Below are positions 804-62,746 of a stretch of DNA of 64,000 nt, one piece after another. The position numbers and the translations under genes were made by a program. The stretch spans positions 13,125-77,124 of the forward strand of contig JAGRLL010000005.1 of the NCBI GenBank assembly GCA_020441855.1, written 5' to 3'. The notes under the pieces are model-generated. The model worked only from the letters and a program-made list of their open reading frames with translations, ran no database searches and was not told where the DNA came from. Numbering within the stretch: the first letter of the stretch is position 1; each line of letters starts with the position of its first letter. This DNA is from Nitratireductor sp. GTDB taxonomy: Bacteria > Pseudomonadota > Alphaproteobacteria > Rhizobiales > Rhizobiaceae.

Positions 804-923
804 ACGTATTCACTAACGCCTTTCCAATGTAATTCATAAGCAGAAAAACATGATCATAAATATTTCTCTGAAAGCCGACGGGGGTTTTATGCCTAAATGT
901 GCTCCAGCGCAGGCTTGGCACAA

Positions 924-1985
924 ATGAGGTGTGTTCTCCACATCGGAACGGAAAAAACAGGCTCCACTTCGCTTCAGCACTGGCTTTACGACAATAGGGA
1001 AGAGCTGGAAGAAAAAGGTATTTGTCTCAGCAAATCGCTCGGCGTTCCGCACAACCGCCTTCTGGCTCTCTATTTCCAGTCGCGTGTAGATGACTGGTGC
1101 AAGGAGCACGGGCTAGAGGATTTCGACAAACGAAGAACCGCACTCGCCCCGGCTCTGCAATCTCTGCGGAACGAAGTGCAACACGCCAGGGAACGGTGCC
1201 ACACTTTTCTGGTCACATCAGAACACCTGCACAGCCGGCTCACGGAACGCAATCAAGTCGAGGAGTTATTTCAATTTCTCGACTCTCTGTTCGATTCGAT
1301 CGAAGTTGTTTGCTATGTGCGCAATCAGGCGGACCTTGTTCTTTCGGCCTATTCAACAGCACTGCGGATGAATTTGACGAGAACGCTGGCGGATTTTGCG
1401 TCGTCCGTGGGGACGGAAGCGATCTACTTCAATCACCTGCTTTCGGCCGAATTGTGGTCGAGTGTTTTTGGGCGATCGAACGTTTCCTTCAGGGTTTATG
1501 AGCACTGCCTGGATCTTCCAGACAGGGTCGTAACGGACTTTGCAGAAAACGTCCTCGATATCAAAAACATGCCCGGCGGCGAAAAAAACCTGAACACGGG
1601 CCTGAGCCCGTTTCATGCGGCAGCCTTTCGGCAGATCAACATACGTTTTCCCCGATGGCCGGCCGACGGTTGGGCGGGCAAGATGAATCGACGTCTCAAA
1701 AGAGTGATATCCGATCTCCCTGTAACCACCCGGCGAAGGCTTGTCGTTCCCGAGCCGCAGGAGATTTTGAGGCGATTTGAGGAAAAAAATGCGTTGTTTT
1801 TCCAGGAGTACGGAGACGGGACAAACCACTTCAGCCCAGAACGATGGGTTGATCGACAGCCAGAAGGCCTGTTCGGGTTCGAAGAGGACCCCGACCTGGA
1901 CGAAATCATCAGGGTTCTGCTGGAACAGACACTATCCGAACCACCCCGTCCGCGAGGTCTGTTGTTCTGGAGAACAAGAAAGTGA
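924..1985 (+). CDS. Sulfotransferase-like P-loop protein (paralog of 4222..5430)
   Basis: HIGTEKTGSTSLQ (PAPS 5'-phosphosulfate-binding-like loop) and YVRNQADLVLSAYS (3'-phosphate-binding-like). Alternative ATG at 897. Confidence 0.5.
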   Translation: MRCVLHIGTEKTGSTSLQHWLYDNREELEEKGICLSKSLGVPHNRLLALYFQSRVDDWCKEHGLEDFDKRRTALAPALQSLRNEVQHARERCHTFLVTSEHLHSRLTERNQVEELFQFLDSLFDSIEVVCYVRNQADLVLSAYSTALRMNLTRTLADFASSVGTEAIYFNHLLSAELWSSVFGRSNVSFRVYEHCLDLPDRVVTDFAENVLDIKNMPGGEKNLNTGLSPFHAAAFRQINIRFPRWPADGWAGKMNRRLKRVISDLPVTTRRRLVVPEPQEILRRFEEKNALFFQEYGDGTNHFSPERWVDRQPEGLFGFEEDPDLDEIIRVLLEQTLSEPPRPRGLLFWRTRK

Positions 1986-2827
1986 CCTTTTGGAAGCAAT
2001 GGCGACTGTTGTTCGACAACAATCGCCCCGTTTTCGTGCTTGGCGTGGGGGCTCAGAAGGCCGGCACAACATGGCTGTACCAGTACCTGAAGGCCTGCGA
2101 GAACACCAATATGGGGGACCTGAAGGAATACCATATTTGGGATGGATTACTTCAGCCGGAAAAGTTCCCTGAATTTGTTTATTCCAATCCGCAAACTTGC
2201 GACGCAAATGTCACGGATCTGCAGCGCGAATTGCAGGCGGACCCTCAAGCCTATTTTCGCTATTTTCGCAATCTGGTGGAAAATTCCGAGATCACTGGCG
2301 ATCTCTCGCCTTCGTATTGCGGTCTTTCAGCAAAGGATTTCCGGTTCATTCGCCAGCAGCTTCGTCGCGCCAATTTTCGGGTCAAGATCGTTTTTCTGAT
2401 GCGTGATCCCGTGGAACGGTGCTGGAGCGCCAGCCGAATGTTTGCCAGAAACCGGGAAATGCGGGGCAGTCCCGGATGGACACAAGAACAACTGGTGGAC
2501 CACTTCGCGCAGGAATTTCCTTCGGCACACTATCAGGTCAGGACCAGGTACGAGCAAACGCTGCAAGCGCTGGATCGAGCGTTTCCCGGCAAGGAGGTCT
2601 ATCTGGGATTTTACGAGAACATGTTCGAACTTGCCAATCTGCAAGCCGTTGCAAAATTTTTCGGGGTGGCGACGCGGCCGGACGAACTCGAGAGAACCCG
2701 AAATGCATCAGCCGGCGCAGTTCTTCCGGAGAATTTGCGCAAGCAATGTCATGACTTCTATCGAAGCACATACGAATATTGCTGGGCACGATTTCCTCAA
2801 ACAAGAAAGCTCTGGCCGCCGGTCTAG
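1982..2827 (+). CDS. Sulfotransferase family protein
   Basis: GAQKAGTTW (PKxGTTW-type loop) and LMRDPVERCWSASR (RDPxxR..S) motifs. GTG 1982 overlaps the upstream stop (GTGA). Confidence 0.75.
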   Translation: MTFWKQWRLLFDNNRPVFVLGVGAQKAGTTWLYQYLKACENTNMGDLKEYHIWDGLLQPEKFPEFVYSNPQTCDANVTDLQRELQADPQAYFRYFRNLVENSEITGDLSPSYCGLSAKDFRFIRQQLRRANFRVKIVFLMRDPVERCWSASRMFARNREMRGSPGWTQEQLVDHFAQEFPSAHYQVRTRYEQTLQALDRAFPGKEVYLGFYENMFELANLQAVAKFFGVATRPDELERTRNASAGAVLPENLRKQCHDFYRSTYEYCWARFPQTRKLWPPV

Positions 2828-3477
2828 TCGAACGCCCGCAGTACCTTGTGCATGCCCGATTGCAGCGTGATCTGGAACACCTGGCGAGAGGTGTGACGCA
2901 AAATCAGGAAAATGGGTATCGCGTGCAGCCCGAGCAGTCGCGGGAACAGGGCGAGCCCCAGAATGAAGGCGATCAACGGAATTGCATCCACCGCCATGTT
3001 TCGTATCGGCCTCAGCCGCCGCCGGGTTTTCTTGGTTTCGTGTTTGGTCGGTTTGGTTGTCACCTGCACAAAGAACTGTGCAAAAGCCCAGGCCAAGCCA
3101 TTGCCGATAATGGTGACGGTCAAGGCCTCCCACGAGCCTATCAGTGCCAGCAAGACGATACTGCCGGCAACGAGGACCGTGAAATAGGCCAGCGCAAAAG
3201 TTATGGCAGCCTGGGCTGGCGTGTATTTTTCCAGCAACTGGGCTCGAAGCCGTTGCCTGTGCAAGGGTTCCAACGTTTCGAGAGAGCGGGCTATCTGCAA
3301 GGCGACGACTGCAGCGACTGCCCCACTCAAACAAATGCCGACCGTCAGCGAACCTGGATGGTTTCGCAGTGCGGCAACGCTGAGCCCAACCAGACTGAGG
3401 AACAGGATATGGGAGAAATTCAGAAAAAACTTCAGTGAGGAAGAGATCAGAAGAAGAGCAATCAGCTTCGGGCTCAT
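2824..3477 (-). CDS. Polytopic membrane protein, unknown function
   Basis: Several hydrophobic helices. ATG 3477 overlaps the stop of the upstream gene (ATGA); the listed start 3501 is the alternative. Confidence 0.5.
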   Translation of the reverse strand: MSPKLIALLLISSSLKFFLNFSHILFLSLVGLSVAALRNHPGSLTVGICLSGAVAAVVALQIARSLETLEPLHRQRLRAQLLEKYTPAQAAITFALAYFTVLVAGSIVLLALIGSWEALTVTIIGNGLAWAFAQFFVQVTTKPTKHETKKTRRRLRPIRNMAVDAIPLIAFILGLALFPRLLGLHAIPIFLILRHTSRQVFQITLQSGMHKVLRAFD

Positions 3478-4193
3478 GAGAAGAATCTGCTCCGCATCCA
3501 ATCAGCAACGATCACGCATGCGATTATCAACAAAGCCGCGTATTTCTCGACGGGCCCGATGGTGTTTCCCGTCGAAGGCCTCAATGCGGTGACCGGAGAG
3601 AAATCAATACGCTGAATTCGTGCGCCTTGCATTGCCATTCCCATCGCAAACGCGAATTCCTCGCCATGCCTTGGCCAACCGAAGCGTGAATTTTTGCCCA
3701 ACATTGGTGAAAAACGAATGGAATGTCTCCTTACGAAATCAACATCAATGACCAGGTTTGGCGATCTGAGGGAAGTCAGCCGTTTCAAGGATGGCCCTGA
3801 AAGCGCCATGCGCGAGGCCGATCGCCAGGAATTGCCCCGCGAAGATTCATGGAAGACAATTGCGTGAGTATCCCGCAACGTATCGAGAAATTCCTCGACG
3901 ATTTCGGGTGACAGGAACGCTTCGGAAAGCAAAGAGTCCGCATCCATGAACCAAAGCCAACGTGTACGGCTGAGCTTGATGCAGTCATTTCTGGCTCGTG
4001 AAAGGCCAAGTTGCTCGCGGAAAAAGACCTTCATGTTCGACGGCGGTGAAACCCGCAAAGCCGGGCCGTTGGCGCTCCCCGTCTGCACCAGGATCAAAAG
4101 CTGGATCCTGGCGTCCAGTTTTTGAGCCAGCCCGGTCCAATAGTCGAAATACTCGCGATAGTCCGCAACCGTGCAGGCGACAGCCAGTGTCAT
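3474..4193 (-). CDS. Glycosyltransferase-like protein (GT-A/GT2-like)
   Basis: LSRARNDCI and WLWFMDADSLL (DxD). ATG 4193 has an AAGGA Shine-Dalgarno (SD) sequence 6 nt upstream; alternative start 4217. Confidence 0.5.
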   Translation of the reverse strand: MTLAVACTVADYREYFDYWTGLAQKLDARIQLLILVQTGSANGPALRVSPPSNMKVFFREQLGLSRARNDCIKLSRTRWLWFMDADSLLSEAFLSPEIVEEFLDTLRDTHAIVFHESSRGNSWRSASRMALSGPSLKRLTSLRSPNLVIDVDFVRRHSIRFSPMLGKNSRFGWPRHGEEFAFAMGMAMQGARIQRIDFSPVTALRPSTGNTIGPVEKYAALLIIACVIVADWMRSRFFS

Positions 4194-4221
4194 TTGCGGT
4201 CCTTGCGGCAGATCCATACGC

Positions 4222-5430
4222 CTAGCGCCCGTACAGTCGCGAAAGCCATTCGAACTCGCGCAGCCAGAGAACCAGCCTTGTACCTCGCCTGGTGCGCCGC
4301 AGCACGCTGACAGCCGAGCGGGACGTGCGCCAGAACAACCGCTTTATATGCGATTTGAACTCGGGAAGTCGGGGATTTGGCACTCGCTTCGAAACGTTGC
4401 GTCTAGCAACCGGCGTACCAGGAAGGATCTTGCCCAGGTCTTCCTGAATCTTCACCAACTCCCCAAGTTCAAATTGCGCGGGCGCCGGCACGCTCGGCAC
4501 TCCTTCCGGGAAAAGCAGCGCCAGGGGTGCCGAGTCTTGCATCTGGTCGCCCAGACTCTCCGAAATCGACTGATTCAGCTCATGCAGAAAGCCACCCGAC
4601 AATACGCATGTTTGATCTTTGCCAACTCTGTAAAAGGGTTGCGAAGCGAGCTGAATAAATCCGGAATAGGCTGCCTGATATTCAGGAAAACTCAGACTGC
4701 TCGTTCTCTGGTTGATGTGCATTGCAAGCAAAACGAAGCGATTGTTGTGCGCCAGGTTGTTCTGCTGCCTGGCGGGAGTTCCGGCTTGCGTGATTTTGTC
4801 CAGCGTCCCCGGCTCTTTGCTTGCCTGGCGCAGGAAGTTGAATGCGATGTCGTCGCCCTTGAGCTTTTCATAGGAATGAAAACAGACGTTCAGCCCCGAT
4901 TGTTCCAGTTCCACCAATCGCTCGAGCATCCGGAGAATTCCGTAGCGTGACGTATCGAGCAACCTGTGATCGTTGGCCACCAATCGGGTGTTGCCACCGA
5001 TCGCGTATTCGGAGACCTGGGAGGACAGCCAGTAAGGAAATTCGCGAATGAGAAAGTGGAACTCAACCGGGCATCCCAGAAAGCGATCGCAGATCGCCTC
5101 GTAGTTTTCCAAGTCTGCCTGGGTCATGTTTTCGCAACTCAATACGAGCGTGTATTCTTGTCGCCCAAGCGCGCTCAGTTCTCTTTTCAGTTCAGCCCAC
5201 ACCCGCTCGCTACCATTGGGTGAAAAGATGAAGCCATGACCATCCGTTCGGTGGATACCGGGCATGCGATTGTCGAAATGAACGCCGGATTTCGGAACAT
5301 AAAAACCTGCACCGAGGAGCAGTTCGCGATTTTCGAACAGCTGCATCTGCAGCGCTGTGGAGCCGGCCTTGGTCAGTCCGCAATGAACGAGCACGCGTCT
5401 CGGCCGCACTTGCCGGAAATCTATCTCCAT
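4222..5430 (-). CDS. Sulfotransferase-like P-loop protein (paralog of 924..1985)
   Basis: VLVHCGLTKAGSTALQ N-terminal loop, and the same overall layout as 924..1985. Confidence 0.5.
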   Translation of the reverse strand: MEIDFRQVRPRRVLVHCGLTKAGSTALQMQLFENRELLLGAGFYVPKSGVHFDNRMPGIHRTDGHGFIFSPNGSERVWAELKRELSALGRQEYTLVLSCENMTQADLENYEAICDRFLGCPVEFHFLIREFPYWLSSQVSEYAIGGNTRLVANDHRLLDTSRYGILRMLERLVELEQSGLNVCFHSYEKLKGDDIAFNFLRQASKEPGTLDKITQAGTPARQQNNLAHNNRFVLLAMHINQRTSSLSFPEYQAAYSGFIQLASQPFYRVGKDQTCVLSGGFLHELNQSISESLGDQMQDSAPLALLFPEGVPSVPAPAQFELGELVKIQEDLGKILPGTPVARRNVSKRVPNPRLPEFKSHIKRLFWRTSRSAVSVLRRTRRGTRLVLWLREFEWLSRLYGR

Positions 5431-6512
5431 GGCTTTGAAGCTATTCGCAATCCGAGCCTGGCCAGTAGTCTTGCCTTGCCGGTGGGCTGAGACCGGACGA
5501 ATCTCAGCAGATGAACAAAGTGAACAAACCTCCTCTGATTTACCAGGGCGTGTTCAAGGGCCCTCAGCAAATAGGGATGCCGTGACAACATCTGTCTGGT
5601 GAGACTGGATTGGAATTCAGGAGGGCTGATCGAATTGGGCAGTAGGCAAATCGAGCGCAAACGGATGATCTGGTGATAGGATTCGACGATCAAGCCATCG
5701 CCCGGATGCGCCGTATCCAGGAGGCTGAACAAAATACGAAATGTGTAATGGATGGCGCGTTCGGCCCTGAACTGTTCCGTCAAATCTTGCCGGGCCTCGA
5801 TCAGTTCCGTCACTCGAGCCACGTGTTCCAGAACCAGTCTGTGATCCACCTCGTCAGGCTGTGTCGACGTCAGTGTTCCTTGCCTGGTCTTGTCGTAATG
5901 CACGATCGGCGACATCCGCAAGGCAAGCAGGGACTTAGCCTTCAGGACCACTTCAAGTCCGAAATCGTGGTCTTCGAATTTCCGGCGCTGGAACCTTATT
6001 CGATTGTCGACCAAAAACTTTCGCCTGTAGATCATTGACCAGCATGGCTGGATCACCGACAAAGCCTGGGTCGACGCGATATCGATCACATTGCCGACAT
6101 GGGGTGAGATCAGTTCGTAGTCCGGATAGACGGCGGGCTTTGAGTTGCCCGAAAACTCGACGACGATCGGCATCAGGCCGACATCCGTGCCTGCCTCGAG
6201 CATGGCATCACACGCTGCGGCAATTTGCGGGCCTTCCGACCAGTAGTCATCTGCATCTAGAAACGTAATGAAATCGGTTTCCGTCCGGTCGATTCCAACA
6301 TTACGGGTCGCGCCAAGACCTAGGTTTTCCTTGTTCCGGACAACCTTGACCCGAGGCTCCCCCGCGTAATGCGCCTCGACATAGGCGCCCGTGCCTTCCG
6401 GGCAGGCATCGTCTACAACGAGAGCGAGAGCATTTTCAGACTGGAGGATGGAAACGATCGCACGGTCCACCGTGGATCTTGCGCGGTAACAGGGGATTAC
6501 GACAGTTATCAA
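5421..6512 (-). CDS. Glycosyltransferase family 2
   Basis: MITVVIPCYRA, VVDDACPEGT, NLGLGATRN, FLDADDYW. ATGA overlap with the upstream gene. Confidence 0.8.
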   Translation of the reverse strand: MITVVIPCYRARSTVDRAIVSILQSENALALVVDDACPEGTGAYVEAHYAGEPRVKVVRNKENLGLGATRNVGIDRTETDFITFLDADDYWSEGPQIAAACDAMLEAGTDVGLMPIVVEFSGNSKPAVYPDYELISPHVGNVIDIASTQALSVIQPCWSMIYRRKFLVDNRIRFQRRKFEDHDFGLEVVLKAKSLLALRMSPIVHYDKTRQGTLTSTQPDEVDHRLVLEHVARVTELIEARQDLTEQFRAERAIHYTFRILFSLLDTAHPGDGLIVESYHQIIRLRSICLLPNSISPPEFQSSLTRQMLSRHPYLLRALEHALVNQRRFVHFVHLLRFVRSQPTGKARLLARLGLRIASKPWR

Positions 6513-7507
6513 GCCGCTTTATCCCTTGTCATGCATGCGAGTATCCGTCCGGCTCTCTCATTCGCTGCATTCGGGCGCAAGCCGATGGAATGATGTTCGA
6601 TTAGAGCCGCCAACTCGGCCTGCGAAGGACAAATTGTGAAGGCCAGATCATCGATTGCCAGGCATTTCTCGACAAGATCCACTCGCCTGGAACGCTCGCA
6701 CTCGATACGCTGATCCTCGCGCATGTTGAGGCTGAACAGGGCCTGCATCGACCGCGTAACGGGGTCCAGATTGTTCAGATTTCGGACACAAATCTCAAAG
6801 AACAGTTCGACCGACGCCTCGATCCTGTGAAGAGGCGGCAACTTTTCCGTGTAGCTTCCCGGCCGGTGTTTTCGATAGACATAAACGGGACTGTCAGCGA
6901 GCATGGCCGCGCCAGCGTTCGCGCCCAGCCAGCTGGTCAGTATCAAGTCCTCGCCCATGTCATGGCGCATTTTTGTCTGATTATAATATTTCAATAACAA
7001 TGTACGGCGAACAATATATCTCCAAATATTTCCCCAATAGAGCAATGGAAATAATACACAACCTTCAACTACAGTTTTATATTTAACGGCAGAATTAATT
7101 TTTGGCGGCTCGTACGCCAAGTCGCGCGTTTCAATGTAACCGAAGGAAAACAGGTCCACAGCCGGCAGACTGGCAAGGGATTGAGCGATGAAGTCCAAAT
7201 TCAACCTCATCAAGATGTCATCGCCATCTACAAGCCAGACAAACTGCCCTGAGCAGGCGCCAACCCCTGTCTGACGTGCGCGAAACAACCCTTGATTGGT
7301 TGTGTGCGCGATCGTGAGTGCGTTGTCATGCACCTTCTCGAAGTCTTGCGCGAGCCGCAGGGTGTTGTCCGTCGATCCGTCATCAACCAGGATGGCCTCA
7401 ACACGGAGATCACTTCGCAGAATGGCAGACAGGCTGGCGAGAAAGCGGGGAAGAAGGTCTTCGATCTGATATAGAGCGACTACAATGGATACAATTGGGG
7501 GTTGCAT
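6509..7507 (-). CDS. Glycosyltransferase family 2
   Basis: IVSIVVALYQ, ILVDDGSTDNT, NQGLFRARQTG, WLVDGDD. The listed start 7561 is TTG; the first ATG is 7507. Confidence 0.75.
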   Translation of the reverse strand: MQPPIVSIVVALYQIEDLLPRFLASLSAILRSDLRVEAILVDDGSTDNTLRLAQDFEKVHDNALTIAHTTNQGLFRARQTGVGACSGQFVWLVDGDDILMRLNLDFIAQSLASLPAVDLFSFGYIETRDLAYEPPKINSAVKYKTVVEGCVLFPLLYWGNIWRYIVRRTLLLKYYNQTKMRHDMGEDLILTSWLGANAGAAMLADSPVYVYRKHRPGSYTEKLPPLHRIEASVELFFEICVRNLNNLDPVTRSMQALFSLNMREDQRIECERSRRVDLVEKCLAIDDLAFTICPSQAELAALIEHHSIGLRPNAANERAGRILACMTRDKAA

Positions 7508-7603
7508 GCGGCAATTCACTGTTTCTGGGTGCCAAGCCTGCGGCGGCTCGCTTGCTTTCAACGTGCCCCAAAAACGTGCGGTTCCCCGGAGGGGAATCAG
7601 CCG

Positions 7604-8458
7604 ATGCTACTGATACCAAAGCTGGGATTAGGATATCAAAATATTCCCAAGATTGCCACAACATCAATTTTCGCGTGGCTGTATCAGGCGCACGGAGAAA
7701 CACCGAACGACGACCCGATTATTCAAAACCATAACCGGAACTTTTTCCTCCGGCAGTTCAAGGTCGATTCGCTGGAGGAAGTCCGACGGGCCGAAGGCGG
7801 ATACCTCCGTTTTGCATTGGTCCGGGATCCCGTGCTCAGGTTTCTCTCGATGTATGGCAATCGCGTCGTCGCCAAGGGCAAACTGGGCAGGGCTTCCAGG
7901 GATGCCGAACGTGTTTTGAGTGCCGGTTTGCCACTCAATCCGCAACTCAATGATCTCATCAATTCGCTGGACGGCTATTTGGCTGCCTCCAGGGCCGTAG
8001 CGCACCATGCTCGAAGGCAGAGCGAATTGTTGGGGCCTGACCTTACCGTCTACGACCATCTGCTGGACATATCAGAGGCTGATCGATTGCTGCCGTTAAT
8101 CAGGCAACATTGGCGTACACACGGCATGTACGAGGCACTGGCAAACGCCGACGAACATTTCCCGCGCCTTCAGACAGACGGCCCCAAAATCGGTCTGGAG
8201 GGACTTTCCCGCCGTTCCTTCGACCGGTTGCTTGAGCACTACCAATCCGATTACGAAGCAATCCCCGCGCTGGATCAGGACGCCATCAAGGCCAGGTTTG
8301 TGGCGGAGAACGGCGGATCCAACCTCTTTTTCCATGACTTCTCGGAACCGGGAACACTGCGCCAGGGGCTTGTCAAACGAGCCCAGGAGATCCGCAAGCT
8401 GTTCTCACAGGTGGCGAGGAAGCTGACAAGAATCGGCAGGTGGCGATCACGCACGTGA
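7604..8458 (+). CDS. Sulfotransferase family 2-like protein
   Basis: IPKIATTSI and LVRDPVLRFLSMY motifs. GGAGGGG SD upstream of ATG 7604; the listed start 7502 is upstream. Confidence 0.65.
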   Translation: MLLIPKLGLGYQNIPKIATTSIFAWLYQAHGETPNDDPIIQNHNRNFFLRQFKVDSLEEVRRAEGGYLRFALVRDPVLRFLSMYGNRVVAKGKLGRASRDAERVLSAGLPLNPQLNDLINSLDGYLAASRAVAHHARRQSELLGPDLTVYDHLLDISEADRLLPLIRQHWRTHGMYEALANADEHFPRLQTDGPKIGLEGLSRRSFDRLLEHYQSDYEAIPALDQDAIKARFVAENGGSNLFFHDFSEPGTLRQGLVKRAQEIRKLFSQVARKLTRIGRWRSRT

Positions 8459-8736
8459 CCTGAAGGGCCGAGGTGGCGGAAATTTTTTACGACGAATGCG
8501 TGCGCATGAGCGGATGAACGCCTTCCCCATGAAGACGTCGCATGCTCGCGCCTTTGGAGCCAGATTTCCCAAACTCTTGCGGGATATCGGGTTTGCCGGT
8601 CTGTTCGCCACGCGGAAACGGTTCGGGGAACAAATGGCCCATTTCAGCAATGGCGGAAGATCGAACTGTCCCGCCTGTCACGCGGCCTGGCAAAACGCGT
8701 GTAAAATCAATGCCTGAAACCAGAAAGAGAAGGGAT

Positions 8737-8810
8737 TGGAGGCCTCGCCCGGAATCGAACCGGGATTGAAGGATTTGCAGTCCTCTGCGTAACCATTCCG
8801 CCACGAGGCC
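8737..8810 (-). tRNA. tRNA-Cys (anticodon GCA)
   Basis: The reverse complement folds as a cloverleaf: acceptor GGCCTCG/CGAGGCC, anticodon loop CTGCAAA, T-arm CCCGG-TTCGATT-CCGGG, encoded CCA. Confidence 0.9.
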
Positions 8811-11732: not shown

Positions 11733-11818
11733 TGGTGCGGGCACCGGGAATCGAACCCGGACGGCCGAAGGCCGAGGGATTTTAAGTCCCTTGCGTCTAC
11801 CAGTTCCGCCATGCCCGC
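11733..11818 (-). tRNA. tRNA-Leu (anticodon TAA)
   Basis: The reverse complement has acceptor GCGGGCA/TGCCCGC, anticodon loop CTTAAAA, long variable arm CGGCCTTCGGCCG, T-arm CCGGG-TTCGATT-CCCGG and an encoded CCA. Confidence 0.9.
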
Positions 11819-11936
11819 CTGCCTTATCAATCAAGGAGTCTGGCGCTCTGGTCAACCTGTGCTTTTGTGCAGCTTTTCAGATTTGTGCAAATCGGCATCC
11901 CCACCGCCCTTACCGGCGCACATGAAAGGAAATGAG

Positions 11937-12176
11937 ATGGAAGTCGATATTGACAGGCTGGGCAGGTCGTTCGCCGGACATGACGGCTTTGATTGTCCTC
12001 ATTGCGGCCACACGCACAACATTTCCGATTCAGATGTCTGCGCGTCGGTCGTCAGCTATTGGGGAGATGATCCGCATGATTTCAATTGTTACCACTGCGG
12101 CAAGGATTTTCTCGTGCTCGAATCCGTGACGAGGCAGTTCACTGCGGCAAAGACTCACGATGAATTAGACGCCTGA
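11937..12176 (+). CDS. Small zinc-ribbon protein
   Basis: CPHCGH...CYHCG pairs. AAGGA SD before ATG 11937. First gene of the RtcB operon. Confidence 0.55.
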   Translation: MEVDIDRLGRSFAGHDGFDCPHCGHTHNISDSDVCASVVSYWGDDPHDFNCYHCGKDFLVLESVTRQFTAAKTHDELDA

Positions 12177-12209
12177 ACCACTACTTGGCGCACATGAAGG
12201 AGAGAGAAG

Positions 12210-12410
12210 ATGAGCGAGGAAAGCGACTACGAAAAAGTGCGCGGCCTGAACGGTCTGTTTGTCGGTCAACTGAGCGATGAAGAAGAGCAGGCGTTCTGGC
12301 GTCTTTGCAATATCAACCGTGCCTACCCTTCGTTTGAAGGAACGGCAGGGTTTCTTGGCGCGGCAAAGGTTCGACTTGTTGCCGCCACTCCACTCAATAG
12401 AGGAGAATAG
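12210..12410 (+). CDS. Hypothetical small protein
   Basis: AAGGAGAGAGAAG SD directly upstream. Packed 5 nt before rtcB. Confidence 0.5.
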   Translation: MSEESDYEKVRGLNGLFVGQLSDEEEQAFWRLCNINRAYPSFEGTAGFLGAAKVRLVAATPLNRGE

Positions 12411-12415
12411 CGACG

Positions 12416-13795
12416 ATGGGAATCACGGGGAAAGACCTGATCGAAATGGGATTTGCGCCGGGCCCGCATTTTCCGGCAATGATCGCAGCGGCGAACAAGG
12501 CTGCCGAATCTGGTGATGATGTGCGCGCCGCCGTGGCTGATCTTGCTCCGCCTGATCCGATCTGCTTGCGTCAACAGTCATTATCGTTCTTCGAAAACAT
12601 CCGCGCCGAAAATGATGATGAGCGCGATAACGTCGAAGCAGTGCGCAAGACGATGAATGAGTTGATGAGAACGCCGGTTTTGAAAGCCGGGGCCGTCATG
12701 CCTGATGCCTGCCCGGCAGGGTCAGTAGGGACCATCCCGGTCGGCGGCGTTGTCGCCTCCGAGGCGATCCACCCAGGCATGCATTCCGCCGATATCTGCT
12801 GCTCAATGGCACTGACGAACTTCGGCAGGGCTGATCCGCTTATCGTACTCGATGCCATGCACAGGGTGACGCATTTCGGGCCGGGCGGCAGGGAAGAAAT
12901 CCGTATGCCAGATGACGTTGCAAAGGCGGTTGATGGTAATACGATGACCCGTGACTTCATCGACATCGGACACCGTGACATGGGTACGCAAGGCGATGGC
13001 AACCACTTCGCCTATGTCGGTCAGTTGAAGTCGACCGGAGACACCGTACTTGTCACGCATCATGGCTCGCGCGGGTTCGGCGCACGGGTCTACAAGCGCG
13101 GCATGAGAGTTGCTGACAACTTTCGCCGCAAGCTTTCCCCGGAGACGCCGAAGGGCAATGCATGGATACCCGCTGACACCAAGGAAGGTGAAACCTATTG
13201 GGATGCCCTTCAAATCGTCCGCGAGTGGACCAAGGCCAACCACTACGTGCTGCACGATATGGCGGCGGAAGCGGCGGGCATCAAATCCCTTGATCGTTTC
13301 TGGAACGAGCACAACTTCGTTTTCAGAAAGTCGGATGGCCTGTTCTATCACGGCAAGGGAGCAACGCCGGCTTTCGATGGTTGGGCCTCGGATGCAACTG
13401 ACCTGACGATCATCCCGCTTAACATGGCCGAGCCCATCCTGATCGTGCGCGGCCAGAACGCTTCAAACGGCCTTGGCTTTTCGCCGCACGGGGCTGGCCG
13501 CAATTTCTCGCGCACACAGCACCGTCGGCGCAACGATCACCGTACCGATGCCGAAATTTTCACCGAGGAAACCGCCGGCATCGATGCCCGGTTCTTTATG
13601 GGCATACCGGATATTTCGGAACTACCAAGTGCGTACAAGAACGCAGCGTCGGTGCGTTCCCAGATCGATGAATACGGCCTTGCCGAGATCGTTGACGAGG
13701 TGTTGCCGTTCGGCTGCATCATGGCCGGTGATTGGGAGAAGGAAGCACCTTGGCGCAAGCTCCCCACCCCACAGGACAAGGAGACGGGACGGTGA
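12416..13795 (+). CDS. rtcB: RtcB-family RNA 3'-phosphate/5'-OH ligase
   Basis: All catalytic signatures are present: SADICCS (D..C metal ligands), GDGNHF, HHGSRGFG, and HGAGRN (nucleophilic His). AGGAG SD upstream. Confidence 0.85.
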   Translation: MGITGKDLIEMGFAPGPHFPAMIAAANKAAESGDDVRAAVADLAPPDPICLRQQSLSFFENIRAENDDERDNVEAVRKTMNELMRTPVLKAGAVMPDACPAGSVGTIPVGGVVASEAIHPGMHSADICCSMALTNFGRADPLIVLDAMHRVTHFGPGGREEIRMPDDVAKAVDGNTMTRDFIDIGHRDMGTQGDGNHFAYVGQLKSTGDTVLVTHHGSRGFGARVYKRGMRVADNFRRKLSPETPKGNAWIPADTKEGETYWDALQIVREWTKANHYVLHDMAAEAAGIKSLDRFWNEHNFVFRKSDGLFYHGKGATPAFDGWASDATDLTIIPLNMAEPILIVRGQNASNGLGFSPHGAGRNFSRTQHRRRNDHRTDAEIFTEETAGIDARFFMGIPDISELPSAYKNAASVRSQIDEYGLAEIVDEVLPFGCIMAGDWEKEAPWRKLPTPQDKETGR

Positions 13796-14043
13796 GCAAC
13801 CAATTCCTAGGTTACTTTTCAGACGCCTCGCAGACAAAGCCGGAGTTCGATCCCGTCATTGAAGGGACGCCATGCCCAGTGTGTCTCAGACCTCTTGCGA
13901 GGCCGGTAGTCACCGTGAGTTTGATGGGCGTCGGTAGCAGTAAAAGCTACTTCTTCCGGGCGCACAAGGCGTGCTGGAATGAAACGCCAGACGCGGAAAA
14001 GGAACGGATCGAGCATTCAATTATCGATGGGACAACCCCATGA
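13792..14043 (+). CDS. Small Cys-containing protein (CPVC..HKAC)
   Basis: GTG 13792 overlaps the rtcB stop (GTGA). Confidence 0.45.
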   Translation: MSNQFLGYFSDASQTKPEFDPVIEGTPCPVCLRPLARPVVTVSLMGVGSSKSYFFRAHKACWNETPDAEKERIEHSIIDGTTP

Positions 14044-14348
14044 CGAGAGATAGCATAGTGGAGAAGATGGCGGCCAATGCCTTCGCATCGGAACGGGTTC
14101 CATGGGAACGTATGCACCCAGCCGATAAAGAAGATGCAATCGAGGCAGCCAACGATTGTCTCACCGCTCTTGAACAGTCCATACCTGGCCTATCAGGAGT
14201 GATAGATGGCGGGAATACCATCGTACCGACTGAAATCCTTGCCGGCGTGCACGAAATTGCTGTGAGGAACGAAGCCGCAGCGGTGATTGATGCCGCAAAG
14301 GTATATCTGAACCGCGCCATGATAGCAGCAGGGGAGACGGCCCGCTAA
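14040..14348 (+). CDS. Hypothetical protein
   Basis: ATGA overlap with the upstream gene. Last gene of the operon. Confidence 0.5.
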   Translation: MTRDSIVEKMAANAFASERVPWERMHPADKEDAIEAANDCLTALEQSIPGLSGVIDGGNTIVPTEILAGVHEIAVRNEAAAVIDAAKVYLNRAMIAAGETAR

Positions 14349-14569
14349 CCCTCCGGCCACTGTGCCAGCACTCTCGCCCCATGCCTTAGCCGCCACCAAC
14401 CGCCCGGTTCGTGCTCGACAGCAGCCCTGAACAGCGCCCTTGCAAGGATCTGGTTCAGTGAGCCACCAACGGCCTCATAGGGAGCGCGGAAGCCTCGCGA
14501 CCAGCGTTCGAGCGTGAATGGGTAGGCGTGATCGTGAACGTTCAAGGGCGGGCTCCATCTGGCCCGCAT
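14345..14569 (-). CDS. Hypothetical small protein
   Basis: Internal ATG (MRARWSPP..) of listed ORF 14345..14725. No family recognised. Confidence 0.25.
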   Translation of the reverse strand: MRARWSPPLNVHDHAYPFTLERWSRGFRAPYEAVGGSLNQILARALFRAAVEHEPGGWWRLRHGARVLAQWPEG

Positions 14570-14621
14570 GTCCAGCCGGCACGTTACCAGCACCACAAAC
14601 GCAAAAAAAGAGAACAAGCAC

Positions 14622-14650
14622 TTGCACGTGCGATTATTTCGCACTATATT
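14622..14650 (+). promoter_or_regulatory. Sigma-70-like promoter TTGCAC-17-TATATT with palindrome GTGCGA-N5-TCGCAC filling the spacer
   Basis: Read directly from the sequence. Lies 55 nt upstream of ATG 14706. Confidence 0.5.
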
Positions 14651-14705
14651 AGTTTCATCGACGCGACGGGATGGCCCGAGACGCAAGAGGTAAAGGAGAC
14701 CTGAA

Positions 14706-15056
14706 ATGTACACCGTTTTCAACACGAACGACTCCAGCGAGATTTATGGACGCGGCATGAGTGCCGAAGAGGCGATGTCGGAAATCCTCCGCTACGATGG
14801 CCATGACTTTACGATCGAACTGGAGGATGACTTCTGGGTGCTTAGAGGCTCGACCGGTTCGCGCTACTCGATGGCAGGACTCGGCAGATTCAACACTATC
14901 ACCGAGGTGCTCGCCGCGAACGAAAGCGAGGCTACGGCCAAGATCGCAGAATATGTGGTAAGTCACTCCGGCTTGGACTGGTCCAAACTTGAGGCGATGG
15001 AAGATTCTGTCTTTGACGAGATGCTTGCCGAAATAGAGCGCCAGAACGCAGAATGA
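14706..15056 (+). CDS. Hypothetical acidic protein
   Basis: AAAGGAGA SD upstream. ATGA overlap with the next gene. Confidence 0.5.
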   Translation: MYTVFNTNDSSEIYGRGMSAEEAMSEILRYDGHDFTIELEDDFWVLRGSTGSRYSMAGLGRFNTITEVLAANESEATAKIAEYVVSHSGLDWSKLEAMEDSVFDEMLAEIERQNAE

Positions 15057-15445
15057 CCCCATTCTCAATTTTGATGAACCTTGCCGGCCTCTCTCAACGG
15101 GAGGCCGCAGCCTTTTTGAAAGTGTCTCCGTCAAGCGTAGACAAGATGGCACGTGGCGTCCGAAACGCGCCAGATGGCGTGATCGATGATCTCCGAGACC
15201 TGATCGACAAGCAGGAAACGGCGGCCGATGAAGCGCTCGCGCTGATTGATGAACAGGACGCCGACGAGATCGAACTTGGCTACCCGACCGACGATCACGA
15301 AGCGCAGTCTTTGGGCTGGCCTTGCGTCGGCGCATGGAAGGCAATGGCAGCGCGCGTGATCGCTGGATGCGATATCCAGGTTCGACTGGTTCCCCGCGGT
15401 TCAACACCATCAACTGCCGCCGCAATCGACCGCCGCGAACAATAG
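15053..15445 (+). CDS. Putative HTH DNA-binding protein
   Basis: N-terminal LSQREAAAFLKVSPSSVDKMARG helix-turn-helix-like segment. Confidence 0.5.
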   Translation: MTPFSILMNLAGLSQREAAAFLKVSPSSVDKMARGVRNAPDGVIDDLRDLIDKQETAADEALALIDEQDADEIELGYPTDDHEAQSLGWPCVGAWKAMAARVIAGCDIQVRLVPRGSTPSTAAAIDRREQ

Positions 15446-15562: not shown

Positions 15563-16057
15563 TCAGGATGGAATGCGTGCCGTCTCCCGCCTGAAATCGT
15601 TCGAGCAGACTGAGACTTCCTTCGGCGGCAAGACGCTTGGCCGGATCGTCACCCAGGTACAGATGCGATAGGTCCCCGCCGGCAGTTCGGTGAACGGCTT
15701 GACCATCCGGCAGGAATCGCCCTTCCACCAGTCCAGCGTTGGAACCGGCGGCAGCGAGGCATCCCGCCTGTACCGGATGCCGGCGCCACGGCATGTCTGG
15801 ATCGTGAAATAGCTGCCGCCATGATATTTGATCTGCTCCTCGACACGGTAATCGCCGAGGAAGTCGTGATGGATCGTGCGGTCGACCTGCATGATACGGT
15901 GGCCGTCCGGTGTCCTGTCTTCGGTGACAACGGTGGTTCGGAGCGAGTACCAGAACGATGCCGGCCAGAGAGGCACAACGAGCAGCAGGCACAGCCATCC
16001 AAGCACGGCGAGCACGATCGACGTGCGGTCGGAAATCGTCGCGATGGCGCGCCTCAT
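15563..16057 (-). CDS. Membrane-anchored protein, unknown function
   Basis: N-terminal TM helix IVLAVLGWLCLLLVVPLW. ATG 16057 overlaps the upstream stop (ATGA). Confidence 0.5.
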   Translation of the reverse strand: MRRAIATISDRTSIVLAVLGWLCLLLVVPLWPASFWYSLRTTVVTEDRTPDGHRIMQVDRTIHHDFLGDYRVEEQIKYHGGSYFTIQTCRGAGIRYRRDASLPPVPTLDWWKGDSCRMVKPFTELPAGTYRICTWVTIRPSVLPPKEVSVCSNDFRRETARIPS

Positions 16058-16377
16058 TTGCCGCCCTTCCATGCGCGAATGAGCGACAGAAAGTACTTCG
16101 AATCCCCGGTGGCACGTATCACGATGCGCATCAGCCCTTCGCCCGTCAGGGCCAGCAGTGCCGCGACAGGGATTTGCCAGACATCGAGCGGGAGATCGAA
16201 GAACGAAACCACCGGCCGCGTGAATGTCACCGCGGAAAAGATCGCCGCAAAGGCTATGAACCCGCCGCGAAACAGGCGCGAGGGAAGCGCGCCCTCATAT
16301 TCGGCGGTGAACAGGCGGACAACGACCGCGCCGAGCACCGTCCACCAGAACGTGTTGTCATGGCCGAACATCGGCAC
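16054..16377 (-). CDS. Small multi-pass membrane protein
   Basis: Three hydrophobic helices. Lies within the lysis cassette. Confidence 0.5.
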   Translation of the reverse strand: MPMFGHDNTFWWTVLGAVVVRLFTAEYEGALPSRLFRGGFIAFAAIFSAVTFTRPVVSFFDLPLDVWQIPVAALLALTGEGLMRIVIRATGDSKYFLSLIRAWKGGK

Positions 16378-16386
16378 CCCCTTCGG

Positions 16387-16797
16387 TCAGAACAGCGGCG
16401 GTGGGCGGAAAAAGCAGATCATGCGGACGAATGACCCGCTGGCCTGCCCAAGTTCCTCGATCCCGCCGGCCAGGCAGATGTGATAGGCCCCATCGGGCGA
16501 GTCCTTGATCCTTGGATCACTGGCCGCGATGTCCTCGGAAAATCCGCGCCCGATTTGGGTGAGAATGATGTGCTGATCCGGCCCGAGTTCGATGTGGTAG
16601 CCGTCGCCAATGGCCGTGACCGCGCTTGCCGGGATTTCGTCGCAGTCTTGCCCAGAACAACAGTTTTGGGGGTAGGACCAGCCGGAAGGCGCATCATGGG
16701 CGCGGCTGTGCGACCCCGCTACAAGAGCCGACAAAGCAACCACACCAACGATGGCAAGAAGACCGCCACAGCCCGGAACTCGACCAGTTTGCATCAT
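16387..16797 (-). CDS. Secreted Cys-rich protein
   Basis: Signal/anchor LLAIVGVVALSALVAG, then YPQNCCSGQDCDEIP. ATGA overlap with the o-spanin stop. Confidence 0.5.
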   Translation of the reverse strand: MMQTGRVPGCGGLLAIVGVVALSALVAGSHSRAHDAPSGWSYPQNCCSGQDCDEIPASAVTAIGDGYHIELGPDQHIILTQIGRGFSEDIAASDPRIKDSPDGAYHICLAGGIEELGQASGSFVRMICFFRPPPLF

Positions 16798-17006
16798 CTG
16801 TTGCATAGTTCATCCCACGCCGCGTTGTGCTCAATGATTTCCGCCCGCGTCTCTTCGGCGTCGCGGCTCGACCAGTGAATCGGCTTGAATGCGCTGCAGG
16901 CGAATCCGATCGCGATGTCAGTCCCGGCGGTACTTGTCGTCCTGCACCCCGCCAGCAGAAGCACCGCGAGCGGTATTGACGCGATCCAGAGCCTTCTCGA
17001 GATCAT
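16794..17006 (-). CDS. Outer-membrane spanin (Rz1-like lipoprotein)
   Basis: Lipobox LLLAGC. The gene starts inside the 3' end of the i-spanin gene, in another frame. Confidence 0.65.
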   Translation of the reverse strand: MISRRLWIASIPLAVLLLAGCRTTSTAGTDIAIGFACSAFKPIHWSSRDAEETRAEIIEHNAAWDELCNR

Positions 17007-17124
17007 TGCGCATCGCCTCCAACCCGCGGCGCTCGCCTTCGTCCAGGGCCTTGTCGCGCTCCGCCTTGCGAAGCAGGATCAAGACCAATTCCGCGATGGC
17101 GAGCGCCAACCTTGCCCATGACAC
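16918..17124 (-). CDS. Inner-membrane spanin (Rz-like)
   Basis: N-terminal TM LALAIAELVLILL followed by a charged coiled-coil-like region. 89-nt overlap with the lipoprotein gene. Confidence 0.55.
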   Translation of the reverse strand: MSWARLALAIAELVLILLRKAERDKALDEGERRGLEAMRNDLEKALDRVNTARGASAGGVQDDKYRRD

Positions 17125-17127
17125 CGA

Positions 17128-17511
17128 TCAACCCGCCGCGTCGTCCATGGGCGGGCCGCCATTGTGCCCGATGGATGCCTTTTCCGGAGCTACGTAGGAC
17201 CAACCGAAAGCAACCGCCATCAAGACGATTGAAGTGATCTGATTGGCCATTTCGCTCGAGATAAGGCCCTTGCCCTGGGCGTACCCGGCGAGCATGCCAA
17301 GACTGTGCCGGAAGAAGCCCTGAACCTTGGCCCACGGCGCATCGAACTTTTCTCCGGTGAACAGCGACCAGAACAAGCCGATCAGGATCATGGCGCCGCC
17401 GGTCCATTCGTCGACCACGGATTCCGGCATGATGGCGCCGGAAACAAGCCATGCGCCGGCCAGGGTGAGAAGATGCCGGAACAGTCCAGCGATACGGTCA
17501 AAGTTCGGCAT
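17128..17511 (-). CDS. Putative holin
   Basis: 127 aa with 3-4 TM helices, located between the endolysin and spanin genes. Confidence 0.5.
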   Translation of the reverse strand: MPNFDRIAGLFRHLLTLAGAWLVSGAIMPESVVDEWTGGAMILIGLFWSLFTGEKFDAPWAKVQGFFRHSLGMLAGYAQGKGLISSEMANQITSIVLMAVAFGWSYVAPEKASIGHNGGPPMDDAAG

Positions 17512-17526
17512 GGGAAAGTCCCTTTC

Positions 17527-18243
17527 CTATCGAGTTTCGGAGAATCCGGCGGCTGAAACATCGCCGGCCTTGATGCTTGGGTAGTCGGTGATCTGGAATG
17601 TCTGGGGCCAGCGGAACGCCATGAACTTCGACCTTGGGAACCAGGAGTCCTTGATCATGTCGGACTGGTTGCCACCCCTGAGCATGATGCGGTCGCGCTC
17701 AACGGCAGCGACAATGCCCACGTGGCCCGACTTCGCGGACCATCGGATCACCCCTACGGCGCCGACGCGCGCCCGCGTGTCCTTCCCGAACTTCGCCCAG
17801 GCCTGCGCCCAGAACGGATTGGATGGCAAAGGTTCATCCGGAAGCGTCTTGACGAAGCAGGTTTCGATGGCGTCGCCGCACCACGGTAGTTTCGCTGGAT
17901 TGCCAAGGTATTTCCCGATCATGAGCCAGTCAGACAGCGTTTTGTTGTTGCTGCGCTCGTGCAGGCCCATGCGGCGCGTCATTTCCGCCAGCCATGGCGG
18001 CATGGTCTCCGCGGGATCTGGCAAGCCATGCCCAACACCGTCGGGAAGACCCGCGCTGCCTGGTGGATTCCTGAGCGCCGCGACAGTGGCCTTGTCGGCG
18101 ATGCGGGTGACGCGCAGACCAGACGATTTCTGGAACGATGCCATGGCTAAGCGGGTCAATGCGCCCCAGTCACCATCAACCGAAAGTTTCGGGTCGGCGC
18201 CATGGACATTGAGCCGGTATTGCACCCATTCAATGAAGGTCAT
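17527..18243 (-). CDS. Endolysin: PG_binding_1 domain + TIGR02594/CHAP-like peptidase domain
   Basis: DGDWGALTRLAMASFQKSSGL (peptidoglycan-binding repeat). C-terminal LPWCGDAIETC...GHVGIV pattern typical of the TIGR02594 family. ATG 18243 overlaps the upstream stop. Confidence 0.75.
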   Translation of the reverse strand: MTFIEWVQYRLNVHGADPKLSVDGDWGALTRLAMASFQKSSGLRVTRIADKATVAALRNPPGSAGLPDGVGHGLPDPAETMPPWLAEMTRRMGLHERSNNKTLSDWLMIGKYLGNPAKLPWCGDAIETCFVKTLPDEPLPSNPFWAQAWAKFGKDTRARVGAVGVIRWSAKSGHVGIVAAVERDRIMLRGGNQSDMIKDSWFPRSKFMAFRWPQTFQITDYPSIKAGDVSAAGFSETR

Positions 18244-18821
18244 TGTTCGCCCCCGAGAATTTCTTCCACCGCGCGCCGGATAGTGATCCGCGTGATCGGA
18301 TCGCTCGCGCATCCGACGTGAGAACTGTTGGGGATCAGTATTGGCGGTGCTCCGTCCCATCCCGGCGGATAGATCACCTTGCCGCCGCGCTTGCCGCTGG
18401 AGTCGCCGGTTCTGGCCCGATACGGCGCGTTGAACAGCCGCCCGAACCAGTTCGGGTCGGACCAGAACTCCTGGGCTTTCTCAACGTTTGGCGGTTGCCG
18501 CATCTCGCGCCCGGCGGTCGGGTCGATATAAGCCGCATATGCGACCTTGATCCCGTGGGTATTGAGCCGCCACGCCATCTTGATCATGGCGTCGACACCC
18601 ATCGAATGGCCGACGGTAATCACAGTCGGCGGGCCGTAACGCCTCGCCCTTGCGAGGATGGCGTCGGTTACGTCTTCCCACTGCCACCAACGCCAATGAT
18701 CGGCCTCGGCAAGCGATGGAAGCCTATCGATCATATCCTCGATGGCTTGGGTGCCGGCGTCGAACAGCGCGTCGCCGAGACCAGAGAATACTGGTATTTC
18801 GAAGTTCTGCGCGGATGACAT
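18240..18821 (-). CDS. Alpha/beta-hydrolase-like esterase/lipase
   Basis: Nucleophile elbow GHSMG and C-terminal NSSHVG (candidate catalytic His). Translationally coupled to the endolysin gene. Confidence 0.55.
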   Translation of the reverse strand: MSSAQNFEIPVFSGLGDALFDAGTQAIEDMIDRLPSLAEADHWRWWQWEDVTDAILARARRYGPPTVITVGHSMGVDAMIKMAWRLNTHGIKVAYAAYIDPTAGREMRQPPNVEKAQEFWSDPNWFGRLFNAPYRARTGDSSGKRGGKVIYPPGWDGAPPILIPNSSHVGCASDPITRITIRRAVEEILGGEQ

Positions 18822-60474: not shown

Positions 60475-60501
60475 CCCTCCATCAACCCGATGGAGACGGA
60501 A

Positions 60502-62513: not shown

Positions 62514-62746
62514 TGGACGCGAGACAATTCCACAACGCCCTGCGGATCATGGCCAGCATGGGCGAAAACGAACTGCGGGCGGCTGGCGTCATCGATGGGA
62601 ATTGGGGCGAATTCGAAGCTTCGAACCGCGACCAACTCGGCGATTTTTTCGCGAACCCGTGGGGCGAGGCGATCCGCATGCCTGACGCCAACTTCAAACG
62701 GCTCTTTGACTACATTGAGGCCAAGAACGCGAGGGCATTCACATGA
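62513..62746 (+). CDS. Small hypothetical protein
   Basis: Overlaps the upstream stop. A GTG at 62510 is the alternative start. Confidence 0.45.
   Translation: MDARQFHNALRIMASMGENELRAAGVIDGNWGEFEASNRDQLGDFFANPWGEAIRMPDANFKRLFDYIEAKNARAFT

Follow-up and report, generated by a model that had tools for sequence, protein, structure and literature searches.

A probable stand-alone RtcB RNA ligase as accessory cargo of a mosaic gene cassette at the tRNA-Leu end of a Rhizobiales prophage

Introduction

What does a gene for an RNA ligase of the RtcB family do at the end of a prophage, and are the small genes packed tightly around it its partners? The question is raised by a stretch of 64,000 nucleotides from Nitratireductor sp. 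(Rhizobiaceae; GenBank assembly GCA_020441855.1, contig JAGRLL010000005.1, positions 13,125 to 77,124 of the forward strand), which is called the window throughout this work. The RtcB cassette of the window is composed of five plus-strand open reading frames (ORFs; positions 11937-14348), orf1, orf2, the RtcB gene, orf4 and orf5, which lie between a host tRNA-Leu gene and the lysis genes of a prophage. A preliminary description, made from the sequence alone, had seen in them an operon centred on a catalytically intact RtcB without its known partners, the small proteins being possible new specificity factors. Our analysis makes it probable that this RtcB is a stand-alone enzyme of RNA repair, carried as accessory cargo of a mosaic "moron" cassette at the tRNA-Leu end of a prophage in a Rhizobiales/Hyphomicrobiales-type chromosome, and that the small ORFs are not its cofactors.

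RtcB uses GTP and Mn2+ to guanylylate a histidine of its active site, the guanylate is passed on to the 3'-phosphate of the RNA, and the 5'-hydroxyl attacks. Where the RNA ends in a 2',3'-cyclic phosphate, this is hydrolysed to the 3'-phosphate before the guanylate is transferred. Ends of this kind, a 2',3'-cyclic phosphate and a 5'-hydroxyl, are the products of anticodon nucleases and of other metal-independent ribonucleases. That a phage RtcB may act as counter-defence was proposed in 2011 (PMC3203893), and in 2021 the proposal was widened to sets of phage genes for RNA repair, Thg1 among them (PMC7824862).

Results

The RtcB ligase and its family

The product of the RtcB gene matches the Pfam family PF01139 (123.8 bits against a cut-off of 27, E 1.4e-35) and, end to end, the phage family phrog_1075, annotated as "tRNA splicing ligase" (residues 3-449 on positions 7-453 of the 459 of the profile, E 3e-88). 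With the E. coli-type equivalog NF007153, whose cut-off is 407, it scores 74 bits, and with the PrfH-linked type TIGR03073 release_rtcB (cut-off 271.8) 48.5 bits; it belongs to neither. Residues were mapped through a profile of 39 family sequences aligned to the RtcB of Pyrococcus horikoshii (Pho RtcB; the correspondences are given in Table 1), in which we take D95, C98, H203, H234 and H329, from the Pho structure, to be the metal ligands and H404 to be the guanylylated histidine. In the cassette RtcB the catalytic positions D126, C129, H197, H215, H299 and H358 all fall in invariant or near-invariant columns of the family, H358 being the histidine that would be guanylylated. All 84 invariant columns of the 39-sequence alignment are kept (84/84), and the frame is uninterrupted over its full length. 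The AlphaFold2 model of the protein has a predicted local distance difference test score (pLDDT) of 91.6 and a predicted template modelling score (pTM) of 0.88, and with Foldseek it matches the solved human and Pho RtcB structures with an E value of 1e-22 and template modelling (TM) scores of 0.64-0.70. Judged by its residues, the enzyme is confirmed as intact and full-length with every catalytic residue present, and in this the preliminary description was right.

Ahead of the part that can be aligned with the archaeal enzymes the cassette RtcB has about 35-45 residues. An N-terminal extension of about 45 residues had been remarked upon before; the extension is there, but it is not peculiar to this copy, its motif ITGxDLIxxGxxPGxWF..A..AN being kept in 156 distinct N-termini of the family. 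The model of this domain is confident and has three short helices (residues 5-10, 19-32 and 36-41). Comparison with the tail of class II CCA-adding enzymes (Pfam PF13735) gave a weak, sub-significant match (E 0.33), and the CCA-adding enzymes 1MIV, 3H37 and 6IBP are among the best matches of the family profile in the Protein Data Bank (PDB), in the same C-terminal segment and with weak E values of 0.05-0.46. A Foldseek search with the isolated domain against PDB and BFVD returned nothing significant. The support in sequence for a CCA-adding-enzyme tail domain is weak, and the structure search did not confirm it; a role of the domain in tRNA recognition is a lead and not a result. In Tenacibaculum phage PTm1 (AP019524.1 / NC_049340.1) the match to RtcB begins at query residue 61 and spans the RtcB gene and a "hypothetical protein", and the best structural match to the N-terminal domain, itself non-significant, is a PTm1 protein of 174 amino acids. 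The N-terminal domain may be separately encoded in this phage.

A tblastn search of phage genomes with the cassette RtcB gave 494 records, 55 of them with at least 80% query coverage. With the RtcBs of Rhizobium, Bradyrhizobium, Mesorhizobium, Tenacibaculum and Cellulophaga phages it shares 46-56% identity, mostly near full length, and many strictly lytic phages encode the same RtcB family. In a protein collection the cellular and metagenomic relatives run into the thousands, with a top identity of 70%; the nearest of them (67-70%) are mostly among phage genes and, where the context is visible, have as neighbours DnaB, terminase, integrase, SSB and endolysin. We compared the 8 kb neighbourhoods of 168 related RtcB loci, among them genome loci (L001-L080) and loci from IMG/VR (L081-L140). 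In the Rhizobiales-type genome loci carrying the family, RtcR is found within this distance in 58 of 80 and a Ro60/vWA protein in 45 of 80. These cellular, RtcR/Ro60-linked RtcBs are 60-66% identical to the phage copies, which suggests that the gene has been exchanged between hosts and phages. A neighbour-joining tree places the RtcB of the window in a grade of RtcR-less copies, beside but outside the RtcR/Ro60-linked clade. None of the 168 loci has a Thg1-like gene near RtcB. Genes for tRNA or tmRNA are found within 8 kb in about 17 of the 60 viral loci, and tRNA genes directly adjoin RtcB in L106 (two tRNA-Arg), L122 (tRNA-Gln and tRNA-Pro) and L092 (tRNA-Trp).

The cassette at the prophage end

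The ORF and tRNA calls agree with the earlier account of five tightly packed ORFs between tRNA-Leu and the lysis genes. The intergenic distances from orf1 to orf5 are 33, 5, -4 and -4 nt, and a purine-rich ribosome-binding site (RBS) is present ahead of all five starts. When genes were called independently on metagenome contigs of the cassette locus, the same set of 79, 66, 459, 83 and 102 amino acids was obtained, and the identical locus was found again in many metagenome samples. Two metagenome variants, L182 (ENA ERZ28655072 scaffold) and L184, diverge from the window upstream of 13067, with the consequence of a truncated RtcB call of 230 amino acids, and again after 14708; these are either strains with rearrangements or chimeric assemblies.

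The left edge of the insertion is formed by the host tRNA-Leu, whose 5' end is turned toward the cassette. In a related genome (GCA_041987205.1, in the following L188) a syntenic tRNA-Leu, 98.9% identical with one mismatch, lies beside the same two desaturase genes, which have about 81% nucleotide identity with those of the window, and on its 5' side an ordinary CinA-like host gene follows at about 100 nt. As the similarity ends at position 11821 and L188 continues with a host gene, what follows in the window from about 11822 onward is, by comparison with L188, inserted sequence. The rest of the window rightward is a tailed-phage genome, with the 3524 amino acid tail protein, portal, large terminase, methyltransferase, sliding clamp and S24 repressor. 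This empty site in L188 supports the claim that the RtcB cassette is prophage cargo.

In two sequencing runs Logan contigs break off at 11790, and one of these runs also gave a contig beginning at 11793; both positions lie inside the tRNA-Leu gene. The breaks may be due to a small polymorphism, or else they mark an attachment-site (att) core repeat, about 62 bp long (11761-11822), that covers the 5' part of the tRNA; an att core at this place would mean an unusual integration on the 5' side. Inside the 64 kb window no tRNA-derived direct repeat of the att kind was found, and an exact-pattern scan of the metagenomes of the Joint Genome Institute (JGI) for the host junction returned nothing.

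A cassette in this position could also serve the host. In the case of lysogenic conversion the resident prophage would shield the tRNA and rRNA of the lysogen from competitor toxins (colicin, contact-dependent inhibition or toxin-antitoxin) or from stress, and lytic growth would not be its concern. The place at the prophage end, the transcription opposite to the late operon and the distinct codon usage of the cassette are typical moron traits; the GC content of third codon positions is 0.51-0.67 in the cassette, lower than in the late phage genes (0.69-0.78) and in the host genes (0.76-0.83). The same RtcB family carries out cellular stress repair in the RtcR/Ro60 operons, and a passage of PMC13166195 reports that overexpressed RtcB2 alone relieves the damage done by colicin E3. 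On the other side, no sigma-70-like promoter was found on the plus strand of the cassette, and the many strictly lytic phages with the same family point to a role in infection. Protection of the lysogen is a live alternative which we regard as possible though doubtful, and it does not exclude a role for the lytic phage.

The sister cassette and the mosaic structure

A full HMMER scan of 1.84 billion representative proteins found two genuine relatives of orf5. The closer one, P0136, is encoded on L185 and L186 (Logan contigs SRR27686862 and SRR12022142), as part of a sister cassette composed of orf2, a hydrophobic ORF of 44 amino acids, a Cys-rich ORF of 65 amino acids, the orf5 homologue, a Thg1-like protein of 264 amino acids (Pfam Thg1 E 3e-28, phrog_4717 E 8e-76) and an ORF of 110 amino acids, in this order. 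The sister cassette has no RtcB, no orf4 and no orf1, and the slots of RtcB and orf4 are filled by the unrelated genes for 44 and 65 amino acids. Between the window and L185/L186 orf2 has 97% nucleotide identity. The homology stops exactly at the ATG of RtcB, returns over 29 nt at the RBS/GTG of orf4 (13769-13797) and sets in once more at orf5; in L186 the conserved RBS/GTG junction precedes the unrelated Cys-rich gene, and the orf5 homologue is translationally coupled to the Thg1-like gene. L186 belongs to a phage and carries genes for HNH endonucleases; one of its late genes is 33% identical to the product of 16387-16806 of the window. The two phages are only distantly related.

The gene boundaries are the sites of change also at the left end of the cassette. 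The 24-nt boundary sequence ACCGCCCTTACCGGCGCACATGAA, which was detected by tblastx and blastn of L185 and stands upstream of orf1 in the window, is found directly ahead of orf2 in L185 and L186. A 12-bp direct repeat, GGCGCACATGAA, occurs just twice in the 64 kb window, where its copies bracket orf1, the right one 11 nt ahead of the start codon of orf2, and once in L185/L186. Since the repeat brackets orf1 in the window and is single in the sister cassettes, which have no orf1, this gene seems to be a gene-sized insertion by short-homology recombination. The modules shared with and replaced in the sister cassette identify the five genes as a recombinational mosaic of exchangeable modules and not as a co-inherited unit. 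An operon "centred on" RtcB is therefore not an apt description, with orf2 and orf5 present in a cassette without RtcB and orf1 apparently inserted separately; recombination at short conserved gene-boundary sequences would have joined the small ORFs to RtcB.

The alternation of RtcB and a Thg1-like enzyme in the same cassette of related phages is a hint of a hot-spot for RNA-repair cargo, and the Thg1-like tRNA-repair enzyme fits the theme of tRNA repair. In the 357-nt gap after orf5 no remnant of Thg1 was found. A further reading of the shared genes is that orf2 and orf5, which are in every case chained to the repair enzyme by translation, serve an exchangeable "tRNA-repair slot" as accessory factors of a general kind; they might, for example, bind or present tRNA, or inhibit a nuclease directed against tRNA. 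If true, phages would swap at this slot an RtcB, for breaks of the anticodon loop, against a 3'-5' polymerase of the Thg1-like type, for 5' ends that have been damaged. We consider this unlikely.

The small proteins as possible partners

The two Cys-rich proteins noticed earlier were recovered as such, orf1 with two CxxC pairs and orf4 with CxxC...HxxC. For orf1 there is a match to phrog_6504, of unknown function (E 3e-7), and all zinc-ribbon matches in Pfam are below cut-off; orf2, orf4 and orf5 have no family match in Pfam, NCBIfam or PHROGs. Searches with models of RtcA, RtcR, archease and PrfH gave no match among the four small proteins, so that the reported lack of these established partners holds. 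For archease in particular, none of seven cassette proteins matches the Pfam or NCBIfam models (E <= 0.1 or 0.01). RtcR and Ro60 were not found in the window by tblastn with exemplars, and there is no release-factor-like (PrfH-like) protein among the neighbours of RtcB.

The four small proteins had been considered as new specificity factors, which, through the coupled orf4 and orf5 and the zinc-ribbon-like orf1 and orf4, would activate or direct RtcB in the place of archease, PrfH or Ro60. The tight packing with overlaps of 4 nt speaks for this, as do the Cys/His motifs of orf1 and orf4, which are typical of nucleic-acid-binding zinc ribbons, and the translational coupling of orf5 to a tRNA-repair enzyme also in the sister cassette. 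However, the 8 kb neighbourhoods of RtcB in the 168 loci contained no homologue of a small protein (tblastn and phmmer), and no small Cys-rich ORF recurs after RtcB, a coupled small ORF with two CxxC motifs being present in only 2 of 167 loci. The 90% clusters of the small proteins hold 1-3 sequences (three for orf2, two for orf4), orf2 and orf5 do without RtcB in the sister cassette, where orf1 and orf4 are missing, and bacterial RtcBs are established to work alone in vitro (cited in PMC7824862, refs 197-198). Partnership with RtcB is on this evidence distinctly unlikely, and the proposal of new specificity factors finds no backing. The best explanation of the comparisons would be that the four small ORFs are lineage-specific genes and not conserved RtcB cofactors, and small neighbours are not to be read as cofactors from gene packing alone. 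Whether the operon is conserved in non-prophage contexts, which had been named as a point that could overturn the counter-defence proposal, is moot because it is conserved nowhere.

The rarity of the small proteins is evident in other collections as well. A concatenated query of the small proteins found nothing in 50,697 phages and one chance-level match in 72,556 plasmids. For orf2 and orf5 there is no match in PADLOC and no relative in IMG/VR. Between orf5 and its homologue on L187 there are 17 synonymous-only codon differences among 37 conserved residues; the conserved core of orf5 is LTALEQ.IPGL.GVI.G.N...EIA.RNEAA. Matches of orf5 to the giant repeat proteins P0137, P0138 and P0140 were discarded as summed low-score repeat artefacts (P0138 alone was inspected), and orf5 has no similarity to the 3524 amino acid tail protein of the window.

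Two further readings concern the cassette as a whole. RtcB is the tRNA-splicing ligase of archaea and metazoa, and the tRNA and tmRNA genes near some of the viral copies (see above) would be in line with a use in the phage's own nucleic-acid processing, for example for joining exons after programmed cleavage of phage or host RNA or for capping DNA 3'-phosphate ends. This is very unlikely: Rfam scans detected two tRNAs in the window and nothing else, neither a Y RNA nor an intron-bearing tRNA nor any other structured RNA at or around the cassette, and the one tRNA nearby, the tRNA-Leu of the host, is intact and has a syntenic counterpart in the prophage-free relative. That the cassette is a functionless, decaying passenger, as the weak codon-usage scores of its small ORFs and their near lack of relatives might suggest, is extremely improbable in view of the uninterrupted RtcB frame with all its family-invariant positions, the identical locus in many metagenome samples and the synonymous-biased divergence of orf5.

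Features of the window around the cassette

The coordinates of the cassette, of its boundary sequences and of the neighbouring features are collected in Table 1.

Table 1. Features of the RtcB cassette and its surroundings, residues of the ligase and location of the sister cassette. Positions are those of the window unless a contig or protein is named.
Feature	Position	Strand	Remarks
tRNA-Leu(UAA), host	11733-11818	-	ARAGORN and Rfam
24-nt boundary sequence ACCGCCCTTACCGGCGCACATGAA	11903-11926	+	upstream of orf1
12-bp direct repeat GGCGCACATGAA, left copy	11915-11926	+	flanks orf1 module
12-bp direct repeat GGCGCACATGAA, right copy	12187-12198	+	ahead of orf2
orf1	11937-12176	+	79 aa (amino acids), zinc-ribbon-like small phage protein
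orf2	12210-12410	+	66 aa, ORFan
RtcB 3'-phosphate/5'-hydroxyl RNA ligase (predicted)	12416-13795	+	459 aa
RtcB N-terminal helical domain	12416-12595	+	residues 1 to about 60
RtcB D126, C129			D95, C98 of Pho RtcB
RtcB N196-H197			N202-H203 of Pho RtcB
RtcB H215			H234 of Pho RtcB
RtcB H299			H329 of Pho RtcB
RtcB H358			H404 of Pho RtcB
orf4	13792-14043	+	83 aa, ORFan; GTG start in GTGA overlap with RtcB stop
orf5	14040-14348	+	102 aa, predicted protein; ATGA overlap with orf4
Gap after orf5	14349-14705		357 nt; weak hairpin and T-rich tail 14628-14644
Antisense ORF, ambiguous	14345-14725	-	126 aa, within gap after orf5
orf6	14706-15056	+	116 aa, overlaps orf7 by 4 nt; pair separate from cassette, downstream
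orf7	15053-15445	+	130 aa, helix-turn-helix (HTH) protein; phrog_955 E 2.4e-7
End of convergent late operon	15563-18360	-	small late genes, lipoprotein spanin candidate, holin, endolysin
Holin	17128-17511	-	Pfam Phage_holin_10 E 2.4e-19
Endolysin	17527-18360	-	endolysin PHROGs
RecT-like gene	62743-63834		at the window's edge
Sister cassette	L185:39-2031, L186:296-2288		compared with window 12187-14348

The antisense ORF of the gap is annotated in some metagenome gene calls, has a poor codon score and gives weak tblastn matches in L121 and L138 (E about 1e-3). Neither orf6 nor orf7 nor one minus-strand ORF has a homologue in the 168 RtcB loci (tblastn and phmmer). The HTH_3 match of orf7 in Pfam is slightly below cut-off (E 1.3e-4, 22.4 against 23 bits). 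No protein of the cassette matches a known anti-phage defence system in PADLOC, the only marginal match being that of orf6 to PDC-M72B (E 0.0063).

Farther from the cassette, the tail region of the prophage contains the single ORF of 3524 amino acids (24146-34720, minus strand), and the early region, beside the S24 repressor, a pentapeptide-repeat protein of 165 amino acids with ANLSG/ADLSR units (60490-60987, plus strand), whose gene includes tandem 15-nt repeats at 60608-60742. At the other end of the window, positions 1-8500 have a lower GC content (0.53-0.55 against about 0.60) and encode family-2 glycosyltransferases and sulfotransferases, a polysaccharide-modification cluster which ends near a tRNA-Cys (8737-8810) and is possibly an island.

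Discussion

A stand-alone RtcB carried as accessory cargo is the reading that we favour for this locus. The cassette RtcB alone would reseal the anticodon loops of tRNA, or rRNA, cut by metal-independent ribonucleases; candidate cutters are anticodon nucleases, toxin-antitoxin RNases and colicin- or contact-dependent tRNases, and the lytic phage, the lysogen or both would regain translation. What we infer here is the substrate, when the cassette is expressed and its role in counter-defence. To regard RNA repair as a counter-defence would be reasonable, and phage-borne repair is a plausible answer to the tRNA-cleaving defence systems, of which more and more are listed.

Several points weigh against this reading. 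No ribonuclease threat was identified within the window, no sigma-70-like promoter was found on the strand of the cassette, as said above, and the hairpin after orf5 is terminator-like only weakly. The right end of the prophage, with integrase and attR, lies beyond the window. The translational coupling of orf4 and orf5 to RtcB may reflect a functional link at the level of the lineage, and the empty result of the concatenated small-protein query in a collection of 5.8 billion proteins carries little weight, since that search missed the window's own small proteins too, although they belong to the collection.

With these points in mind, the locus is one more example of an intact phage RtcB, in this case in a temperate phage with a Rhizobiales-type host. 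Two things go beyond the ordinary: orf2 and orf5 are common to an RtcB-type and a Thg1-type cassette, and an uncharacterised N-terminal domain is kept throughout the family.

Comparison with known systems

It is instructive to set the cassette beside the RNA-repair systems already described. The RtcB2-PrfH system of ribosome repair is similar in that an RtcB paralogue counters a ribonuclease toxin, colicin E3 (PMC9223846, PMC9304027), and differs in its PrfH, of which the cassette of the window has no counterpart, the TIGR03073 score of its RtcB being far below cut-off. The cellular RtcR/Ro60-linked RtcBs of Rhizobiales, which are of the operon type of rsr-yrlBA-rtcBA of Salmonella and rtcBA/rtcR of E. 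coli, belong to the same sequence family as the RtcB of the window; in contrast to them, none of RtcR, Ro60 and Y RNA was found in the window, and no RtcA match among the cassette proteins. Phage T4 is the established case of a phage which repairs, with Pnkp and Rnl1, the tRNA-Lys cut by the anticodon nuclease PrrC in abortive infection (reviewed in PMC7824862). The logic is alike, but neither the enzyme nor the chemistry is related: T4 heals and seals by way of 3'-OH and 5'-phosphate ends with an ATP-dependent ligase, whereas RtcB joins the 3'-phosphate and the 5'-OH directly with GTP.

Closer in kind are the RtcBs that are themselves phage-borne. In the mycobacteriophages of Cluster K1 the RtcB gene lies beside phage tRNA genes and was proposed to guard against the cleavage of tRNA by the host (PMC3203893); the actinophage RtcBs are detectable relatives of the cassette enzyme (216 Mycobacterium phage records) at only about 25% identity, and the tRNA beside the cassette of the window is a host gene and not a phage gene. 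The nearest comparison is with the members of PHROG 1075, such as those of Bradyrhizobium phage BDU-MI-1, the Rhizobium phages B1VFA, RHEph10 and the RHph series, Tenacibaculum phage PTm5 and the Cellulophaga phages, which are 46-54% identical to the RtcB of the window over 95-99% of the protein and have the same N-terminal domain and the same catalytic residues. While these named phages are mostly large and lytic, the copy described here is carried among unrelated neighbours in the end cassette of a temperate phage.

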